From Octopus vulgaris (taxonomy: Eukaryota), in the NCBI GenBank assembly GCA_951406725.2, contig OX597814.1, forward strand, positions 137,764,001-137,828,000: a DNA stretch of 64,000 nucleotides, written 5' to 3'. The notes below the pieces were generated by a model. That model was not told where the DNA came from. It searched no databases and saw only the letters and a program-made list of their open reading frames with translations. Made by a program: the position numbers and the translations under genes. This document shows positions 2,280-63,231 of the stretch, piece by piece; positions within the stretch are counted from its first letter, which is position 1; the number at the start of each line of letters is the position of its first letter.

Positions 2280-5200
2280 GAACTGATCTAAATGTTTGTT
2301 TACTTGCAACGCTGCACTATATTAAACTAAAAGTGAAGCAATTGTATGTCTCACTAAGTTATTGTGATATGAAGGAGGAAAAGACAGAAGCAGAGAGAGA
2401 ATTACAGTAATCTTACCTGTCTATCTGGAAGGGTCACTCACAACATCCACATGCTCTGTCTGCCGCCGTATCATCTATCTATGTGGAAGCAATTGCTCAC
2501 AACGTCCACATGCTCTGTCTGCTGTCATATCATCTAACAGGTCTGCTCTTGTATGCTGTCCACTGCCAACTGACCACTCTCACCTTGGTGACCCCGCATG
2601 CCTACCGTGGCCCTTCCAGTGGGACCCACAGGTCCCACTTCCAACAGGACATATGTACTCCCTCACTTCCAGTCCTTCCCTACACCACAGCCTGGCTCAT
2701 AACACCACAGTTATTACAAAAATTCTGGTTTCACACAAAAAATTTCTGTAATAACTTAGTGTGAATGATACACCATTTGTCCAATTTTGGTAAGGTTTTT
2801 TGGTCTTTCATGTATGCATGTTTGCATAAATATGTATGTTAGTTTATGCATTTATTCATAATGTATTTAGTATTTTAATAATAATAATAATAATAATAAT
2901 TGTGTACAGTGCTCAGGTGCACTACAACTCATCTAAAGTGTATATATAATCAGGTGTAGTTTCGGCGGATTTTGGAAAGCATGAGGGCCTTAAAGGATGC
3001 AGTGTCATGGCAGTCAACAACTGATGCAGGCAGTTTATTCCATGCTTCAGCAACTCTGAGCGTGAAAAAATGTTTCCGAAAGTCATGGGAGCTGTGTTGT
3101 TTTCTGACTTTGTAGGCATGTCCACGTGTGTTAGACACATGGAGATCAAAAAGGTGTTCAGTGTTGTTGTTGGTGAGGTGGTTGATAACTTTGTGGGCGT
3201 TTACCAAGTCCGTCGCCAGACGCCGGAGCTTCAGTGAATCTATGCCCAGGGAAACAAGGAGTTTAAATCTTTGTTTTCGAGTATTCAGTTTACCTAATGT
3301 TGTCCAAACAAGACCGCTGTCTTTTGAATTAACCAATCAGTTGATTTTTATATTTATCATTATGCATTAGTTTCTTAAAAAAGAGTTTATTTTATCACCA
3401 AAATAGATACCTTTCTGCTTGTTATGATTTAAAAAAAATAATCGTTTTACTTATATTCTCATAACTTATTAATTAAAAGTTTATAATATTGTTCTTTTAC
3501 ATAAATAGATTATTTTGGCATTTGGTAACTACATGAACAGTTCCAAGAGAGGTTGTATTAATGGTTTTAAACTGGAATCATTAACAAAAGTAAGTTGAAA
3601 GATGTTTTTCCAGTCCTTTTCTTTCCTCTGAAATTAGAGATACTTGTACCAGTCAAAGATTGGGTTATGATAGGTGTCATATAGCTTGTTTGAAAGTTAA
3701 GTTTATTTCATTTCTAGCTAACAGTTTACTTAGTGTGTGTGTGTGTCTGTATATTTTATCTGCAGTGCCTTTGATATTTTTAATAAACTTATTACTTTAT
3801 TTTGCAGTTGTGTCAGATAAAATCCAAGGACAACAATCAAACACTCCTGGAATATCTTGTTGATATCATTTGTTGCTATTATCCAGCATTAATATTCTGG
3901 TATGATGATATTGACTTGCACATAAAGAGATCAGGTGAGCTTTATATGTTCTGATTAGAAAGATAATAAATATTTTAGGGAATAAATATTAAGACTTGAG
4001 AGCTTTAATGAATTTTTGCATATGATTATTTTTATAAGAGTTTAATAAAATAGAAGTAGCACAGATACTGATTTCAAATTTTGGCACAAGGTTGGTAATT
4101 TTTAGTTGAGGGGTAAGTCGATTACATCAACCACAGTGTTCAACTGGTACTTATTTTATCGACCCTGAAAGAGTGACAGGCAAAGTGGGCCTCTGCAGAA
4201 TTTGAACACAGATATTATGAGACGAATCAGCTACTGTAAAATGATACCAGACATTATAAAAGTTATAAGAAATTTACTGAAGTTCAGTGTCCCAAACACA
4301 CCCATGCAAAATTGCAAAATGATAGCCTTTGTACTGCATCTATTTTTATTTTATGTTGTAAACGTTATTCTGTTACGACATGCGTTCGAATGTTACGGTT
4401 TCGAAGGGAAATAACTTCGTCTTCATCTCGATTGTTATTGCTATTAGTTGAAATCAAGACAGGCAGATGATAGTACAAGAGTAATGAACAGGGAAGATGT
4501 AATATGTGTTAACTGGGTGGGAGCCGACTGTTATAGAAAAGAGAAAGTAAAACAATGAAGAAATACTGGAAATTCTAGATTTCTGGAAGCTGGATAAGAG
4601 GTCCAGTATTGTATATTATGTTCATAAAATGATTATAAAGTAAAAGTAAATACTATGGTCTAGGTTTGTTGTTATAATTATAAGACATTCTACCACGAGG
4701 CAATTGTTTTAGATCCAACACACATTCTCAGGTTAGATCACTTGGCAAATAAATGCACCCACCCCCCAAAAAAAATTTAATGTTTTTATATATTTTTTTC
4801 TTTTATATATTTCAGCTTCATATCAATCCATTGCTGTTGATATATTTACCTTGAGAAAAGGAATTGATCTGTTGAAGTTTGAGAGGGAGAAAAATACATC
4901 TATCAATGAATCACTTGAAATATCCTTTTTGGCAAAAACGTGTGTGTGTGGTGTATGTTTCAAATTTTAGTTCAATGTTTTCTTAGCATCAAATACATAA
5001 TGAGACCTCAGTGTAGCCAATCTGTTGTATTATCTATGTTTAAGAAACAAGTTCTGCTCATTACAGCCACTTCATATCATTTAGTTCAGTTTCATTCAGA
5101 GTTGTATGAAAAATATTTTACTTCATCCCAACATATTCCTATAGACAACATTCTCTAAGTTATTTCAGACAAACCAACTAGATATCTATGCACATCAATC

Positions 5201-17829: not shown

Positions 17830-19941
17830 CTAATGGATGTTTTCAGGATTGCTAAAAGCACTTGAATCTTGTGTTCTTTCTGCATGACTGGGTAGAACCT
17901 CCCACTGGTCACCAGGGTTAAGAGAAGAGGACGAAGAGGATGATGTATCCCAGTTCAGGCCATCTGAAATGTCATGTGCGTTTACAGCCACAGTGTTGCT
18001 GTCAGAAATCAAGTTTGCTGAGGAATCTAGAGATGATGTCATTACATCATGTGACACTTCTGGCATGGATGCTGTGGGCTGTTGATTACTAGTACTGACC
18101 GGCACACCTGAAGACCGATGGCGGAGATTAGAGTTGTCTACAAAACTTCTGGGTGTCATTGATACAGCATCAGCAAGTCCTCCTAAAAGTTCAACATTTT
18201 CGTTTGTACCTGGAAAACAGAATTTTTTTTTAAAACAATAAAAAAAAACCTCATAATTTACATTTAGAAATTATTTTTATATCATTTATCAAATAAACTA
18301 CTTGCAGATATGGCTGTATGGCCACATTGTGGTACCTTGGATAAAACCTGAGAATGAAATTTGTATGTCAAAAATTGCACTGAAGTCTGCCTAATACATA
18401 TATACATAGATTTTGGTTTCCAAGTGGATTCAATGCCATAGTTCAGTAGAAGAATTCCTTCTTTTATTGGTTATGGTGTTTTTGCAGGGTAAATTGTCAG
18501 ATATAGTATTATTATTAATAACGCTAATAAATTTTTGGAAAGAATAAATAAACTGTTAAGATATTTAGTAAAAGAAGGGTATAAATATGGTAAATTGGTT
18601 AAAACTTTTAATCACTGTTAAGGTGGGAGACTTGAAATTTTAAATAAATATGGGGTAATATCTAGTCTTCAACTTATCAAATATTTGTAAAGATTTGGAA
18701 TTTTTACGATTTAAGTTATTTGCTTACTACATCACCAACATTGTTTGAGACAATTGAGGAAGAAGTAATTACATACTACATCATAAGGTAGTCTTTTAAA
18801 TTCTAGAGGTGATGGAACTATGTGGCTTGAAAAAACATGTAAGTATTAATACTTTGTAGTTTTATTATCTTTTAAACAGTTTTAATTTAGCTTTAATTGT
18901 AGCAACATTTTATAATAATAGTTAATTTACAAGTATACTTTTATCAGTTCTTATTTAATAAATTTAATGCATCCGATCATCGCCGTTCGCCAGCCTCATC
19001 TGGCACCTGTGTCGGTGGCACATAAAAACACCATCCGAGCGTGGCCGTCTGCCAGCCTCGTCTGGCACCTGTTTCGGTGGCACATACAAAAAACACCATC
19101 CGAGCGTGGCCGTTCGCCAGCCTCGTCTGGCACATAAAATCACCCACTACACTCTCGGAGTGGTTGGCGTTAGGAAGGGCATCCAGCTGTAGAAACACTG
19201 CCAGATCTGACTGGTCTGGTGCAGCCCTCGGGCTCCCCAGACCCCAGTTGAACCGTCCAACCCATGCTAGCATGGAAAGCGGACGTTAAATGATGATGAT
19301 GATGTTTCTATTAGTTACTGGTAAGTTTACATTAAAGCTTGTTAGGGTAATATATATTAATGTGTATGTAGTGTTTTTATTATCAACTTTTGAATTATGA
19401 AATAATGTATTTCACTCATAATTATTATATTATTCATTAAATTAAATTCAATCATATTTTGTTTTGGAGAGAATTGAAATAAAGCTTTCATTTTTTTTAT
19501 TATAGTAGTAACTATGGAAGAATGGTAGGATTATTATTTGTATGGATTTAAAGATTGGTTGCTATTTAGTATATAATTTGGTTATTGTAGGTTTATCAAT
19601 AATACTGACACAGATGCACATAGATTTATGTGTTTCTTTGTTGTAGTTTAATCTTGCCTATATTTAGATTGAATGTGGTTATTAAGCTTTCACTTTTATA
19701 TTATACTATAGAAGACTGTAAGGAATAAAATGTATGACTTAAAGGTTTGGTTGCTGTTTAGTTACATATTTAGGAGTTGGTTATAGATTTACTTATTGAA
19801 TTTATTTACCGATACTGTTGTACACAGGGGGAATTTCAAGTCTCCCACCTTAACAGTGATTAAAAGTTTTAACCAATTTACCATAGTTTATCCTGTTCAT
19901 GCTATTGTACTAGCATTATCATGCGTTTGAGAATAACTTAT

Positions 19942-19984
<43 letters not shown>

Positions 19985-22900
19985 AATCTGGAGGATACCC
20001 ACCACCACTACCACCATCTGAACTTGAAGAGAGTCACGAAGAGAAAATTAATCTGGTCTAATCCTCCATTTAACCTAGAAGTTTCAACCAGCATAGCTAG
20101 GAGCTTCCTGATGCTAATCAAGAAACCCTTTCCTAGAATCCAAAAGAATTATAAACTTTTCATCTCCTACAATATTGAGGTTAGTTACTTCTGCTTAGAC
20201 AACACCACTTCTAACATTGCATGCTACAATAGATACAAACACACCTAAGCTGCCAATGTACATCCCAACCTGTAACTCCAGAATCCTACCAACTTCCTGC
20301 TGGAAGGATCCTGCATCATAAGGTCTTTGGTCTATAGAGCCACCTTCACATCATCTGGTAGTATTACAACACACTACATGGACATGACAGCCAATGACTT
20401 CAAGGGAAAGTATACACAGCATATGTATATGCTTCAGTGGATAAAATGCCACTAAGTACTTTGTGGAACTTCCGACTGCCTTGCCGAACTAGGTGCCAGG
20501 AACCATGCATCAGGTTGTGACTCAGTAAAAGAGACAAGTTGTGAAAAGGTGAGTCTGACAAACAGGGAACACAATCACCATGAAGGAAGCACTGGAGATG
20601 TCATAGCCTCAGCATATGTCTGTGCATCATCAGCCATGGCATGCCCAATCTTCCATTCAGTGGGGTTGACAACAAATGGAGTACCTGACCACTGGAATGT
20701 GTCCCTTCAACAGAAAGCAGAAGAGTATGCACTCCAATTTAGTCAGATGTAAACTGAGGCAAGGCACAATGATCAAGTGGTAATATATAACAGAGGTGAT
20801 ATATGCATTTGCCACCTCTGCTCAACCTTTCAGAGATGGTTTTCTCTCGGCCCATTTCTGGATGAGATTGGCTACCCTGTTCATCACCTTATCCCAGTTC
20901 TTCTCCACTAGGTGATCTGGACTAAATCAGACTCCAAGCAATTTAACAGGTCCTTCTGTCCAGCGTGCCACAACATTATTGGAACTTCTTCAAGTTCCAA
21001 GTGGCAGGCCCACTGACTTTTTTTTTGGTTAATTTTTGCTCCTGTCATTTCCTCATGTTCTTTTAGAGCACAAGGCCAGCAGTTTTTTTTGTGGGGGGGG
21101 GGTTGTAGGGGAGGGAGTAAACTAATTACATTGACCCCAGTGCTGAACCGGTACTTATTTTATCGACCCTGAAAAAAATGAAAGGTAAAGTTGACCTTGG
21201 TGGAATTTGAACTCAGAATGTAGAGACAGACAAAATGTTACAAAGCATTTTGTTCAGCATACTAATTCTGCCAGCTTGCCACCATGTTGCTGTTGTTGTT
21301 GTTGTTGCCAGCTCACCATCATGTTGTTGGTTGATGATGATGATGGATGATGATAATGATGATAATAATAAACTACAGTTTTTACTCACTTGGGATTTGG
21401 CTTTCATTGGGTGTATCATGCCTGGCTAACATTTCATGGTCCAGTTCAGTATTTGACACTGATTGTGACTGATTTGATTCTATAATGTTCTCCACATTAT
21501 TTGCCTGGTTATTTGCTGACAGCCCAACTGGAGTTGAAGTTAATACAGTATTTCGGGTCGGAGAAGTGGATGTCAGATTTTCAACAGGTACTGATGATGT
21601 TGTACCCGATGTTGCTAGCTGTGAAGCCAGCGATGGATAGATTGTATTTGTTGGTGAGCTTGTGATAACAGGATTGTTATCTGAAGTGGAATTGTCTGGC
21701 TGAGATGATGGAGCTGATGGAGGAGATGGTGGGTCTGATGGCGGAGATTGTGGTGGAGCTGATGAAGCAGTACGTTGTTGCTGTTGATGGTAGTTGTGAG
21801 CATGCTGGAACTGCTGATGAAAACGATTGAAGACATCAATACTTTTATGAAAGACAAATAAACCAACTGCCACTGAGAGACTGAAGACAATTGATAATAC
21901 ACCCATAAGAATGAGTACTCCTCCTAAGATGATAGTTGCGAATGTTAGGACAGTACCTGAAAATTAATAGGAAATAAAATAAAACTGTAATCAGTGAAGC
22001 CAAAGTATTTATGTAACAAAGTAGAACAATTTCAAACCATTGTTTAGTAGCTATTCTCTATCTCAAAAAGTAATGTGATAAATATCTCCAAGAGCCACCA
22101 AGATTTGTAAAGTAAGTGCTTAGCTCTGGATTCAGTAATGTTAAGTGGATAAGAGAAGAATTTGCCTCTCAATAAAATAGCAGTGGATAAATAGGTAAAG
22201 TTCCTGTAAAACATGGTACATATTCCTGCCTGCTATATGAACTGAATCATATTGAAGTAATTATCTCACACAGATATCTACCACAATATCTTCAGTGGAA
22301 ACGAACAAACAGATGGTATGGTATGATATCTTATCTATTCAGAAGTAACACCCCTAGTAAGTAGAAATCTAATTTCAAATCTTAAAACAAATGTTTATTT
22401 TGCTTACTTTCATTGATCATGCAACATAATCACAATATTTCACTTTTATACTTCAGTTCACAATTTACAAGAATTTAAAACAGAAACTCTCTTTAGTAAT
22501 GATTATAGTTAGCTTGAACAATTAGCATCAATACAGATTTCATAACATAAGATTTAAAAGCAGCATATCTAAGATAACCTAGCAGTCTACATTCAATGAT
22601 CCCATGTACCATGCCTTTTTCAGATTTAGCAAAATTGGGATAATTTTCTATCATAACTTTTGATTTTAAAATATAAAAATTAAATTTTAATTTCAATAAA
22701 TAAAATACACAAGCAGGAATGTTTATGAAACCTAAAACTAGATTCCTTTGAGCACAAAATTAACTAAAAGATTAACAGTATATTGTGTGTAAGAGGGTGA
22801 AAGTTCATTACATTTACATGTTTGGAAATGTAAACTATATTAGAAATTTCTAGAACTGTATCTGAACCTATGTGATAAATGCTAAAAGCCATAATATACT

Positions 22901-25038
22901 TCTGAATTATTTAAAAGATATGATTTCAAAGGACTAAATTTAGTATGTAATCTGGCAGCTATATCTAATAAGATACTGCTGCCTATACAACAAACAGAGA
23001 AAATGATGTTTTTACATAATATTCTGTCTGCAACCATTATACTTATCAATCTGAATAATTTCAATACTATCTGAAAAAAGTTACTTGAACAAAATCAGAT
23101 GATATCATCTGTGCACAATCACATGCAATACCTGCTTGTGATTCATTGAATCCTGTGCTGATGTTTTGTTCAGGATTGTCACTTGACATGGCTTGAGGAC
23201 ATCTGGTCAGCAATTGGAACTGTTCCATTAAATATCGTTCCAGAGAAGAAATGCTGTATTCAGAGCCTGTGAGTCATAGTGTAGAAGGGAGTAGAGTTAG
23301 GAGAAAGTCAAATTAATTCAGTGCAGTTAAATCCTAAGTTAAAACAGAGGAGAAATTATTCTTAGACAGTGCCAAAATAAAGTGGTGAAACAACAGAAAA
23401 AAAATAAGGCTCATTATCTATGACAACTTAAAGGCACAAACTAGTGTATTTACATACGTAGTCTTTATCAACTTATTAACTGTTGGATATAATTTCTGTT
23501 ATATCCCCTATTTCTGGGATGAGGTTTCATTAATATAAAATATATATTACACTTTTCTTCAAAACCTCTTTTGATTGACTGTCTCAGGAATAGTTAAATC
23601 ACTGGCTATCTTCATATTGTTTATAAGACAAAACTAATAACTACTCAGTGAGAATGATTTAGGTATATAGTACATACTAGTCATAATAGCACATCACCTG
23701 GAGGCAACTAAAGATTCAATAAGTTACAGTTTGGAAAAGCAAATAATTCTGAAACATCATGCAACAAAATGTAACTATAACATTAATATTATTTTTATGA
23801 CTCATATCCTTACAGAAGATATTTCTTTTTTTTTTTTATTAGAGGAGGAAGAGCAGCACTATGAGAATTTTACTGTAAAGCCTTTGAGACAGGTAGGAGG
23901 TAAGTATAGAAGTAACAAAGTCTCATCAACTGCTAAAGTATTAATCTATCCTCAAACCTCATTCAAATACTTGTAACTGAACTCATTCTGCCTTCCAAAG
24001 GCTACATGTGGAAATAGAATAGTTTTCCTCATTATTGATACAATATCAGGTTTACATTGCAGTTGAACATATTTGTACAACAGCAAATTTTTATCATTTC
24101 ACTGAATGATGTTTGAAATATTTCTTTATGAGTCATTCATTCATTTTAATGTAAAAGGATTCAATTGCAGTATTGTGTATGATAAAGCCATTTGATATTT
24201 TCCTGTTAGCTTGGGGTCTCATTTCACTGTCATTCTTTCTCTTTTATCATCTGTTCAGCCACAAGGCAAGTATGGGGTGATGAAATTCAGAGCCTTGCCC
24301 TCAACACAATATAATACAACACTGTGCCAGCAGAGATACAAATTCACAAGTCTTCAGCCTAGAGCAGTGATTCTCAATCTTTTGTAATTTCATGGCAGAC
24401 AGAAGATCAAATAAAATTATTGGTGCACTTTGAGCATTAAAAAAATGAAAAATAAAAAATTAGATTTTAACATGAAATATTTAGAATATACACAAAACAA
24501 TTGTGTTATTTAACCACTCATACTAATACATAACAAAATTATGAATCACATTACAATGGATTTAGCAAAGCTTTAAACCATATTTGAGAAAAATCTTTGG
24601 TACACCTAGGTATCTGTTGTGATCCATCAGTGTGCCATGATGTACCATTTCAGAATCACTGGTCTAAAGGCTTACCTAATTAGAGTAATTCATTGTACAA
24701 AAGCAAGCATCACAGTTGCTAAACATGCATCAATCTAGACATTGCTTTCTAAAAAAAAGATATAACATGATTTGAATAAAAATGAAGGAATGTTAAAGAT
24801 ACTTACCTTCAAGAAACATAAACCCACCAAATGTAAGGAAAATACTGAAAAGTGTAAAGGCAAAGAAACAGGCAACAGGCACACTGCATAATACAATAGT
24901 AAAAATTCCAAACATTGTGATGAAAGGATGGTTGGCTGCAAATGTTTTTAGCTTCTCCAAGCGGTTAGTAAGGTCAAAGTTTTCAACCAGATCTTGATAG
25001 ATGTGGGAGAGAATTGTGCTGAAGCTTTCATTCTCCAT
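17830..25038 (-). CDS. LDAF1: Promethin / lipid droplet assembly factor 1 (TMEM159)-like protein with long disordered C-terminal tail
   Basis: Coding exons 25038-24807, 21956-21390 and 18209-17830 with GT-AG phase-1 introns give 1179 nt = 392 aa. An in-frame stop lies upstream of the ATG and there is an acceptor at 25076-25078. HPF..(hydrophobic)..VPVxxF..(hydrophobic)..LEG..(hydrophobic) matches the promethin double-hairpin pattern as I recall it from human TMEM159. Confidence 0.8.
18977..19303 (+). mobile_element. RTE-tail non-autonomous retroelement with (GAT)n tail; other copies ~12723-13100, 41205-41477, 45735-45900, 50230-50480, 52330-52540, 55005-55330, 58275-58578
   Basis: GTGGTTGGCGTTAGGAAGGGCATCCAGCTGTAGAAAC..CCATGCTAGCATGGAAAGCGGACGTTAAA(TGA)n, preceded by short internal repeats. 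The same sequence ends the RTE LINE at 34062-36137. Confidence 0.85.
19990..20475 (+). mobile_element. Penelope-like element (Neptune-type) remnant, linker plus GIY-YIG endonuclease region
   Basis: KRKLIWSNPPF..FLMLIKKPFP..YKLF..IEVSY matches the Neptune RxxIWFNPPxS..FLxLIxKHFP..KVSYSC pattern, followed by a frameshifted VYRAT..HYMDMT..FKGKYTQH GIY-YIG-like stretch. Confidence 0.75.
20480..21070 (-). mobile_element. Tx1/L1-clade LINE ORF2 fragment (decayed)
   Basis: Minus-strand translation EEMTGAKIN.KKS..GPVKLLGV*F..EKNWDKV..QKWAERKPSLKG*AEVAN..ILFCFL with stops is typical of the post-RT region of Tx1 elements. Confidence 0.7.
23132..23266 (-). CDS. Candidate alternative 135-nt cassette exon of the LDAF1-like gene
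   Basis: CTAAC branch motif, pyrimidine tract and CAG acceptor; CAG|GTATTG donor. Phase 1-1 and stop-free in the gene's frame (SEYSISSLERYLMEQFQLLTRCPQAMSSDNPEQNISTGFNESQA). No transcript evidence available. Confidence 0.5.
24365..24661. mobile_element. hAT-Charlie-type MITE
   Basis: TIRs CAGTGATTCT..AGAATCACTG; 8-bp flanks GCCTAGAG / GTCTAAAG (6/8 identical, NTCTAGAN-like target site). Confidence 0.7.
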
Positions 25039-60364: not shown

Positions 60365-61264
60365 TGGTCGTAATCAATTTTACCTTGTCCTTATTCTTAG
60401 TGCAAGTTTTGAAGAGTGCAGTTCGATTTTAACAGCTATTTATTCAAAGCTATAATGGAAGTGACAAAGGAGCATATTTGCCATATTTTGCTTTATGAGT
60501 TCAATAAAGGCAACAACACAATTGAAAGTGCAAGGAATATTAATGCAGTATATGGGGATCAGACAATAAGCGTAAGCTAGTATCAACAGTGGTTCCAGAA
60601 ATTCCGAGCTGGAAACTAAAGCCTAGAAGATGAGCCTTGTCATGAAAGATCTGTAGAGCTCAACGAGGATGTCCTGCAAACCATGGTGGAATAAAATCCC
60701 ATCGTAACTGTTGAGGAACTAGTAGAAAAGCTTGGATTTGATCCTTCAACCATTCATCAACAACTACATGCTATCGGAAAAGTCAGTAAATTGGGTCAAT
60801 GGGTTCTTCACAAAATTTCCAAGTTTAATCATGTACAGTGAGTGAATGTGCACTCTTCTTTGTTGCCATGTCTCACAAACGAACCTTTTTTGGATTGAAT
60901 AGTGACAGGTGACAAGAAATAGGTTCTCTATAAAAATGTCAAGTGCCGAAGATAGTGGGTAGGAAAAGGAGAGACATTGGCACCCCAGGTTAAAGAAGGT
61001 CTTCATCCATGTAAGGTGTTATCTGTTTGGTGGGATATGAAAGGTTTAGTCCACTTTGAACATTTAAACCCAAACCTAATGATAACAAAGGAGATCTACT
61101 GCAAGCAGCTTCAGTGGCTTAAGTTAGTAATAGAAGAAAAACAACCATCTTTGGTTTCAAGACAGCAAGTGTTCTTCCATCAGGATAATGTTCGGCCACA
61201 TACAGCGAGGATAACATTCCAAAGGCTGGAGAAGTTTGAATGGGGAACAATGTCCCAACCACCA
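60365..61264 (+). mobile_element. Mariner transposase pseudogene (3'-truncated)
   Basis: ATG at 60455: ..HILLYEFNKG..WFQKFRAG..GKVSKLGQWVLH..IVTGDKK*VLY..LHPCKVLSVWWD..FHQDNVRPH..QPP. Multiple in-frame stops; ends before the YSPDL motif and the third catalytic Asp. Confidence 0.92.
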
Positions 61265-63231
61265 AACACACATAATCATATACATATATATTTAGAATGG
61301 TATATGGTCTGGCAGTCATGCTGTTTGGTTCATGGTCAGCAGTTCAATTCCTGGAATGGGTAGTTCTTTGTATATCCTTGTGTATGACATTTCATTTCAC
61401 GCACTCCTGTGTACTCAGCCACAAACAAATACCAGCCTGTTGGCAGTGCAGCTCCCTTGCTCTCTCTCTCTTTCCCACCAGGTTCAATTGCTGAGGCCAC
61501 ATTTACTAGTCAAGGACAAAAGAGCCAAGCGGTTGTTCACTTCCTCTTTCTTCAATGATAGTATATATAGAGAGATATAGAATGAGAAACACATATTACA
61601 AAGGAGACAAAAAAATATAGGTTGAAGAGCAATGCAATTGTATGACATCAAACTTTGCTTTCCTTGTTTTTTATCTTTCATTCTTTCTTTCTCCGGGACA
61701 GTGAAAGAGAGGTTCAGGATGAGAGAAGTGCAATGAGAGAGAGAGAGAGAGAGACACACACACACAGAGTTAGAGAGGGAAAGCGAGGTGAGAATGATGA
61801 TGATGATGATATTGGTGGTTTGAAAACTGGGTCACAAGTGACAATAATAGTCTATTGCTGCATTCTTTTAAATGAATATAGATTTCTGCTTGTTATCTCA
61901 ATTTCACTGTACAATGGCAAGAAAGATTATTCATATTCACACACGCCAACATATGTTTATACAAATTGGCTTCTAATTTTCTATGCATGACTGTGTAGTT
62001 ATGAAGTATCAACTGCATGGTTTCAAATTCAGCTCCAATATGTGTCACCTGAGGCAAGGGGGTTCTCTTACAGCCTGGGCCAACCTGTGTGAATTTGGGC
62101 GACAGAAACCAAAAGAAGCCTGTTTTATCATGTTCATCATCATTTTAATGTCCACTTCTCCATGCTTACAAAGCTCAGGTATAATTTATTGAAGCAGATT
62201 ATCTATGGCTTGTATGCCCTTCCTGATGTCAACCTTCTCCCATTTCCAAGCCAGGTAATATAGCCTCATATTTTCACAGAATATTGGGGAAATGAATAAC
62301 TGCTTCTATGACAGTGACACTCATTTACAACTATCACACTATGCCACACCACAAAGAGCCACACACACATGCATGCATGCACACACATACACATGCACTC
62401 ACTCACTCACAATGGAGATCTTTCAGTTCCCATTACCAAATTCACTCACATGGCTTTGGCTGGGGCTATAGTAGAAGGCAGTAGAACCTAGTTAATAACT
62501 GAACAGGATTCACTTACAGACCATTTCTGACAAATATATTCAGTTAATTAATTCTTCTCCAGGCCTTCTTTTAATGAAAAGTGGGGGTTCAGGGGGGTTT
62601 CGCAGAGAAAATGAAAAGCGTCACTTTTCTCAATTAAAATGTTATATCAACAGTTGAAAAACTTACTCTTGTGTAACTGATACCCTTGACAAAGGCATGA
62701 ATATCACAAAATCCAACTGTATCTGCATATTCTGATAGTTCTTATACTGTATCAAACACTAGTCAAACCATCACACGTTGCTTGTATCACAAGCCTGAGA
62801 TATTCAGTGACATTCAATCGTCATAGAGAAGGACAAGATGACTTTTCTTTGGCACATGATGTGGAAACTATTTATTTTGATGAGGGCCTACTATATATGC
62901 GTTTTCACAGATAATGCTTTAAAGAGGTGTATATAGCAATGGTAAAAAAAAAAAAGAAAAGAAAAAAGAACATGTCACCAACCTCTACTTACTGAAATGA
63001 ATGAAATACCAATGTGTGTAGGTAGCTGCAACAGTTTGCTGTCTCTTGAGAATGTAAGTAACTGTAATATGAAACTATCTCTCTGAAATTTAAGATAACA
63101 TTAAATATTTAAAACAGTTGAGTTATGACATAAAATTCAAGTCAGATAAATTATGAATTTGAATCAAACTGTTCTGATCCATACATGTAACTCCCAATAA
63201 ATTGGTTGAGTGTCCTTCTTTTGCTTGTCTA

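Follow-up and report, generated by a model that had tools for sequence, protein, structure and literature searches.

The seipin partnership of LDAF1 (promethin, TMEM159) and its location on lipid droplets are known from its homologs (PMC11484260, PMC7967230). Human LDAF1 and the fly protein dmLDAF1 share the Pfam domain PF16015, and human and mouse promethin have a hydrophobic domain of 76 residues between hydrophilic ends (PMC6468817). In this study, we analysed a stretch of 64,000 nucleotides (nt) of the Octopus vulgaris genome (contig OX597814.1, positions 137,764,001 to 137,828,000; hereafter the window), which carries an LDAF1 gene on its minus strand. The central hydrophobic domain of 76 residues is common to the human, mouse and octopus proteins. 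The cephalopod proteins differ from human and fly LDAF1 in an added acidic tail of 231–291 residues with a conserved terminal island, and in octopods the two halves of the hydrophobic domain are set apart by a cassette exon. The island contains the tetrapeptide WEVL, which resembles an LC3-interacting region (LIR), also called ATG8-interacting motif (AIM). Our tentative reading is that it binds ATG8.

The yeast proteins Ldo16 and Ldo45, known as the vCLIP tether with Vac8 and as the receptor of Ldm1-Myo2, are remote LDAF1 homologs with the same order of parts. Ldo16 uses a cytosolic C-terminal disordered region for lipophagy and for contacts via Vac8 (PMC11664512, bioRxiv 2023.04.21.537797), and it also serves droplet motility (bioRxiv 2025.02.21.639583). 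That the family is connected with lipophagy is already known in yeast. The cytosolic part of Ldo16 has 93 residues, binds Vac8 and functions in microautophagy, whereas the tail in cephalopods has three times that length, with an LIR-like, W-acidic-like sequence at its end. An ATG8-binding motif is not mentioned in the cited accounts of Ldo16.

The organellophagy receptors TEX264, FAM134B/C, SEC62 and FUNDC1 have, like cephalopod LDAF1, a membrane anchor, a net-negative disordered region, a distal LIR (a candidate one in LDAF1) and upstream serines. They are not homologous to it; the likeness is one of layout, and the anchor of cephalopod LDAF1 is a droplet-assembly domain. Few animal lipophagy receptors are known; one is ORP8 (PMC10501187), and receptors of this type are already described in mammals. 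ORP8 is an endoplasmic reticulum (ER) and droplet protein with a second role as an LC3/GABARAP-binding, kinase-regulated lipophagy receptor, and it has two Trp-type LIRs (PMC10501187). Unlike LDAF1, it is a lipid-transfer protein outside the seipin assembly complex. The molecular basis of mammalian droplet-lysosome tethering is incompletely understood (PMC11664512). No account of a cephalopod LDAF1 tail was found in literature listings, in searches that excluded supplements and did not pair 'LDAF1' with octopus or cephalopod. No LDAF1 LIR was reported in the titles and abstract openings found, which do not cover the supplement tables of ATG8 and droplet interactors.

An LDAF1 gene with a long disordered tail

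Three coding exons join in one open frame of 392 amino acids, as a previous reading of the sequence alone (hereafter the sequence-only reading) had supposed. Coding exon 1 (24807..25038, minus strand, as all features of this gene) encodes residues 1–77, with the N-terminal helices and the first hydrophobic half of the promethin domain (38–77). Coding exon 2 (21390..21956) encodes residues 78–267, with the second hydrophobic half, an amphipathic helix and the start of the disordered tail. Coding exon 3 (17830..18209) encodes residues 267–392, with the distal tail, its conserved motifs and the stop codon. All exon joins follow the GT-AG rule (donors GTAAGT and GTGAGT after exons 1 and 2, acceptors TTTCAG and TTCCAG before exons 2 and 3), and the two introns, of 2,850 and 3,180 nt, are both in phase 1. 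The translation is letter-for-letter the database protein P0006, which its source assigns to Octopus vulgaris. O. sinensis and O. bimaculoides have near-identical models, filed under names that do not help. P0001, P0002, P0003 and P0009 are mislabelled 'cell wall protein RBR3' in RefSeq/GenBank, apparently after the low-complexity tail; they are LDAF1.

The Pfam Promethin profile (PF16015) matched residues 16–114 at 55.2 bits, above its gathering score of 27 (E 6.9e-15, profile positions 5–103 of 106), in agreement with the promethin identity first proposed. Exon 1 alone still matched (E 7.3e-10) and was the sole match in the Octopus genome, in which a single LDAF1 copy was found. In an alignment of 48 sequences, P38, P54, F58 and F61 were invariant and H37, F73, E77 and G78 near-invariant, and the octopus protein has the HP, P, FxxF and FxxxEG residues conserved in the family. 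On these sequence features, the octopus gene is a member of the LDAF1 family. A search of the ESM Atlas with the whole protein returned promethin clusters at 0.80–0.85, which serve as leads only. No solved structure was matched by sequence, and none by Foldseek with a first, low-confidence model.

Residues 38–113 form a hydrophobic stretch of 76 residues, in which E77 is the sole charged residue. The sequence-only reading had placed hydrophobic hairpins at about residues 40–113. The hydrophobic stretch stands, whereas the AlphaFold2 model built with the 48-sequence alignment shows helices at 4–21, 23–36, 38–75 and 80–142, so that the membrane part appears as two long helices without hairpin kinks. 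A double hairpin has been proposed for human LDAF1 (PMC7967230). The N- and C-termini should lie on the same side, because two hairpins and two long passes both give an even number of crossings. The family literature places the N-terminus in the cytosol (PMC6468817), and by this precedent and the even number of passes the tail is likely cytosolic and not luminal, as the sequence-only reading required. A predicted amphipathic helix follows directly after the membrane domain (21808..21852, approximately residues 113–127), in the position of the cationic amphipathic helix of Ldo16. Its hydrophobic moment is 0.73 in both Octopus and Sepia, and it is helical in the AlphaFold2 model.

The tail comprises residues 114–392 (279 amino acids; S 20%, N 10%, P 9%, T 9%; net charge −19), which confirms the low-complexity tail of about 280 residues ending in WEVL described before. 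AlphaFold2 predicted no secondary structure past residue 142, and the tail pLDDT (predicted local distance difference test) was mostly below 50. The tails of Octopus, Argonauta and Sepia measure 279, 231 and 291 residues, with net charges of −19, −21 and −10. Lysines are nearly absent from them (21850-17833 in the window): 1/279 in Octopus, 1/231 in Argonauta and 2/291 in Sepia. This scarcity may protect the tail from ubiquitination.

In the database models of Octopus and Argonauta, and in Sepia proteins derived from contigs, exon 3 is linked with the hairpin exons, in agreement with the proposed splicing; its match is 100% in P0001/P0002 and 62% in Argonauta. Four Sepia-cluster proteins of 404 amino acids derive from 17, 53, 5 and 2 contigs, the longest below 2.9 kb. 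They are likely from spliced transcripts, because these contigs are shorter than both octopus introns summed.

A search with exon 1 against 1.84 billion representatives gave 45 matches. Two were cephalopod proteins (389 and 404 amino acids), and the other 43 had 82–253 amino acids. Eighteen of the 43 were kept because they had both hydrophobic halves; the remaining 25 were dropped as first-exon fragments or as non-matching. The tails of these 18 homologs had 0–80 residues with net charges of −6 to +5; W-[DE] occurred in none and some core [WFY]-x-x-[LIV] in 5. Six of the ten that were looked up could be named, i.e., Solemya, Haliotis, Liolophura, Lottia, Pinctada and Sinanodonta, and none has the long tail. 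The absence in these six molluscs indicates that the tail is a cephalopod addition. Judged from these sequences, it was gained after the cephalopods split from other molluscs and before the split of octopods and cuttlefish. The latter split dates to roughly 270–300 million years ago. The homolog set is not the whole family: the ESM Atlas lists promethin-like clusters of arthropods (236 amino acids) and fungi (243/275 amino acids) outside this comparison. An ortholog search with exon 3 gave 3 proteins among 311 candidates, a promethin-domain search at lengths of 215–686 gave 4 among 313, and one among short proteins with the tail end of Sepia gave 0 among 4. The tail origin cannot be dated more closely, because these protein searches recovered no ortholog from squid, vampire squid or Nautilus. 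In the ESM Atlas, residues 280–392 had no usable match, and a blank there shows nothing.

The conserved island at the tail end

Residues 348–373 (17890..17967) form a conserved island, identical at 25/26 positions with Argonauta and at 22/26 with Sepia. Octopus and Sepia are identical at 98/114 positions of the promethin part, at 64/233 of the tail from 115 to 347 and at 2/19 after the island. The best other window of 26 tail residues reached 11/26. The window of 348–373 was picked after the alignment had been seen, hence a word test free of alignment was added. The longest exact word common to Octopus and Sepia had 13 residues, whereas shuffles (n = 2,000) gave at most 8. The substitutions in the island are D/E, T/S, S/T, G/V and G/A; together with the mixed codons of its serines, they point to selection at the protein level. 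The island very likely constitutes a functional region of the linear-motif type. No second copy, whether paralog or donor, was found in the Octopus genome, where the locus itself was the sole match.

Three elements were recognised in the island. The first is the Trp motif LNW[DE] (17947..17958, residues 351–354), which is W-acidic-like and occurs in 14/14 cephalopod proteins examined. It also resembles the shuffled AIM of C53 (PMC7615515). The second is a run of seven serines (17923..17943, residues 356–362), a candidate phosphorylation tract at −13 to −7 from W369, and Sepia keeps a Ser/Thr run of equal length. The third is WEVL (17893..17904, residues 369–372), the core LIR/AIM candidate and a second Trp-acidic site, which occurs in 13/14 cephalopod proteins. 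The Octopus tail has two Trp residues, 16 residues apart, and both are conserved. The check set by the sequence-only reading, whether WEVL is a conserved patch in a divergent tail, came out in its favour; the width of the patch and its second Trp had been missed. A microsatellite origin of the Ser run was considered and rejected, because its codons are mixed and form no triplet repeat.

Outside the island, the tail has a second small conserved spot, LR[HQ]R (18115..18126, residues 295–298). LRHR is the only four-residue word of the tail outside the island shared by all three lineages, and the LR[HQ]R pattern appeared in 2.5% of shuffles. We take it to resemble a di-arginine ER-retention signal.

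Candidate partners of the island

Our favoured reading, held tentatively and at a little less than an even chance, is that the conserved end patch of octopus LDAF1 binds ATG8 via WEVL and couples droplets, or their birth sites at the ER, to autophagy. The promethin domain would work with seipin at droplet birth sites and then move onto droplets, as the human, fly and yeast homologs suggest. A seipin gene is present in the Octopus genome, and several ATG8 genes are represented by 8 exon matches. The acidic spacer of about 250 residues would hold the island away from the membrane in the cytosol, as in organellophagy receptors. W369 and L372 are weakly predicted to enter the two pockets of GABARAP/LC3, and WEVL would bind the ATG8 on forming autophagosomes. 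Kinases acting on the Ser run would putatively tune this binding, up or down given the distal position of the run. The upstream LNW[DE] would likely provide a second contact or serve a second partner.

Several observations agree with ATG8 binding. The receptor-like layout that was proposed initially, with a membrane anchor, a long disordered region and a distal LIR-like motif, was recovered. The disordered region is net-negative and longer than 47 residues, and WEVL lies 256, 214 and 271 residues from the membrane domain in Octopus, Argonauta and Sepia, respectively. Organellophagy receptors of mammals have disordered regions of 47–250 residues (PMC12431859). LC3B binders are enriched for W at position 0, E at +1 and an upstream acid (bioRxiv 2026.01.05.697675), and the context of WEVL (W at 0, E at +1, D at −2) agrees with these features.

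Residues 343–385 were also co-folded with GABARAP, as the sequence-only reading had proposed. The partner was a stand-in from a metagenome locus, which over 66 residues shares 97% identity with the GABARAP exon of octopus. The score was 0.36 against 0.02 for the best of 3 controls, which was graded as weak support. Runs agreed in at least 67% of contacts, and the partner pLDDT was 48. The mark for a pass was reached by 51/78 solved and 2/108 mismatched pairs, and in the eukaryotic set by 71/105 solved and 2/126 unrelated pairs. Passes at scores of 0.60 or less came from just 5 of the 78 solved pairs but from all 4 passing mismatches, and the calibration set contains neither peptides nor disordered chains. 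The pass may also reflect mere likeness, because LIR-ATG8 complexes have already been solved. The co-fold prediction shifts the odds of ATG8 binding only slightly. ATG8 binding by the island is plausible.

A number of points weigh against this reading. The pattern W-x-x-[LIV] arose in 30% of 20,000 shuffles of residues 141–392, and any [WFY]-x-x-[LIV] in 59%; with an acid at −1 or −2, the figure was 6.5%. The sequence-only reading had described an LIR preceded by acidic or Ser residues. Of this description, Asp at −2 holds, whereas −1 is Gln, just one acid lies within −1 to −3, and the Ser run is distal. The Gln at −1 breaks the xLIR pattern (PMC5079668). The patterns of the GABARAP interaction motif (GIM) and the FIP200-interacting region (FIR) (PMC7615515) are not matched either, as W-E-V-L is not W-[VI]-x-V and the Gln at −1 breaks the FIR. 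These three patterns enrich for LIRs and do not define them. The activating serines of TEX264 adjoin the core, whereas the Ser run of cephalopod LDAF1 lies at −7 to −13. FAM134C is inhibited by phosphorylation at −12, −11 and −7, and in OPTN phosphorylation up to −8 can still help binding (PMC7615515). In the island, conservation extends to 16–21 positions upstream of W369, and Octopus and Sepia are fully identical over 362–373. A footprint wider than a degenerate LIR requires hints at another partner. The co-fold score was barely at the mark and came with no contact list, hence it does not indicate which Trp binds. AlphaFold2 docked 8/8 non-functional LIRs of a published benchmark (PMC12582063). 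The Octopus (279) and Sepia (291) tails exceed the mammalian range of disordered regions. The 14 cephalopod proteins represent only three independent lineages. In addition, the Sepia genome model P0012 has no WEVL end, and P0015 and P0017 end where exon 2 ends. P0012 is identical to P0020 over 302 residues up to the break, and P0020 has a normal WEVL end, for which reason we read P0012 as a probable model or assembly error. ATG8 binding alone would not make LDAF1 a receptor.

The two Trp sites could instead be a tandem W-acidic motif (WD, then WE) that recruits the kinesin-1 light chain, which would make LDAF1 an adaptor for droplet transport. We consider this unlikely, although it has points in its favour. 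W-acidic motifs consist of a Trp with D/E beside it and frequently L/M at −2; in SKIP they form a pair of WD and WE (PMC5450233). In SKIP/PLEKHM2, calsyntenin and nesprin, which are organelle-bound, tandem Trp-acidic sites lie in an unstructured acidic region (PMC9365671, PMC5450233). The loose form is matched by LNW[DE], whose Trp has L at −2 and is followed by an acid at +1 in 14/14 proteins, and by QWE 16 residues further on, and this explanation accounts for the conservation of both tail Trp residues. Phosphorylation of the Thr/Ser run would provide the missing acidic charge. The strict consensus L/M-D/E-W-D/E (bioRxiv 2020.06.17.157255) is matched by neither site and nowhere in the three tails: where the kinesin-1 adaptors have D/E at −1, cephalopod LDAF1 has Asn and Gln. 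The conservation of V371-L372-P373 is left unexplained. In yeast, Ldo16 acts on droplets as a motor-adaptor receptor, but the motor link maps beside the membrane domain and not to the distal tail (bioRxiv 2025.02.21.639583). A kinesin light chain search of the genome (PF13424, PF09311) gave mostly other tetratricopeptide-repeat (TPR) or coiled-coil genes and one short exon (L109), presumably of a kinesin light chain.

The island may also be an extended docking peptide for another folded partner of the armadillo, TPR or WD40 type, and the likeness of WEVL to an LIR would be incidental. The tail would then be a tether at contact sites of droplets with lysosomes or other organelles, like Ldo16 with Vac8. 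A footprint of 26 residues suits an extended peptide that binds in a groove, as the Vac8 binders do (bioRxiv 2023.04.21.537797), and the order of hydrophobic domain, amphipathic helix and disordered tail is that of Ldo16. This explanation remains doubtful to us: no candidate partner emerged, Ldo and LDAF1 are remotely homologous, and the animals in between that were found have no tail, so the tail need not be inherited from an Ldo-like ancestor.

A combined scheme, which we rate as quite unlikely, makes coleoid LDAF1 a phospho-switched hub. WEVL (for ATG8) and LNW[DE] (for kinesin-1) would flank the Ser run and choose between autophagy and droplet transport, and the cassette exon would set action at the ER or at droplets.

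Ser/Thr runs behind an acidic residue are sites typical of kinase relays, and RxR serves as a signal for ER retention. The fixed-length Ser/Thr run behind an acidic residue and the conserved LR[HQ]R upstream would therefore suit a degron or sorting signal under kinase control, by which the lifetime of LDAF1 itself or its retention in the ER would be set, with droplets not as cargo. This is very unlikely in our view, since the one, one and two lysines of the three tails leave few ubiquitin acceptors and a spacer of 250 residues would not be needed. It is highly improbable that exon 3 is minor or mis-joined, or that the tail is neutral low-complexity growth with a chance motif: exon 2 can be read through to a stop two codons inside the intron (at 21382), three models lack the WEVL end and the core motif is common by chance, but the 404-residue Sepia proteins likely come from spliced transcripts, P0020 matches P0012 and yet has the WEVL end, and the island conservation goes far beyond chance.

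If WEVL binds ATG8, as we favour, an animal LDAF1 would directly link droplet assembly and autophagy, by another route than that of Ldo16 via Vac8. One protein would then aid both the building and the recycling of fat droplets. The tail is a self-contained module that could be grafted on human LDAF1, so the proposal is cheap to test. Its scope is the evolution of droplet biology and cephalopod physiology; it says little on human LDAF1, because, of the homologs found, those of cephalopods alone have the tail.

Cassette exon and other features

A cassette exon of 135 nt (23132..23266) had been missed in the three-exon gene model, which otherwise holds for the coding exons. It has AG/GT ends and keeps the frame, and it differs at 1 position from P0002. 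Its 45 mostly hydrophilic residues come to lie after E77 and before G78, where they part the two hydrophobic halves, and the resulting isoform has 437 amino acids. Its residues were found in the proteins of O. sinensis, O. bimaculoides and Argonauta, and it was not found in 8 Sepia-cluster proteins examined or in P0011. Octopus and Argonauta are identical at 41/45 of its positions, far above the 106/233 for the tail. The start of the cassette is moderately amphipathic (moment 0.54), and no Pfam match was obtained. The side of the membrane on which its loop lies differs between the double-hairpin and the two-long-pass topologies. The cassette could alter the location of LDAF1 between ER and droplets. 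Upstream, an acceptor-like site lies 5′ of the ATG and points to a first exon without coding sequence, which would be a further departure from the three-exon model.

The coding region of octopus seipin (L114 1192-2613, G000:C22) seems to be intronless, as the whole seipin domain lies inside one frame of 473 codons. This frame likewise has an LRQR near its C-terminus, presumably resembling a di-arginine ER signal. Within the LDAF1 tail, an [IL]YPxL word at residues 183–187 (window ~21642-21625, minus strand) is present in Octopus and Argonauta and absent in Sepia; we assume a resemblance to the ALIX-binding motif. The octopod YPxL-like word near residue 184 was also considered as a second LIR and rejected, since it is lineage-wide and absent in Sepia.

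Elsewhere in the window, the regions ~18960-19300 and 20300-21160 (both in the intron before exon 3) and 2950-3336 look by eye like remnants of short or long interspersed nuclear elements (SINE/LINE), with no Pfam match in the three frames tried. A transposase fragment was annotated at 60956-61363 on the plus strand (Pfam Transposase_1, E 1.4e-15).

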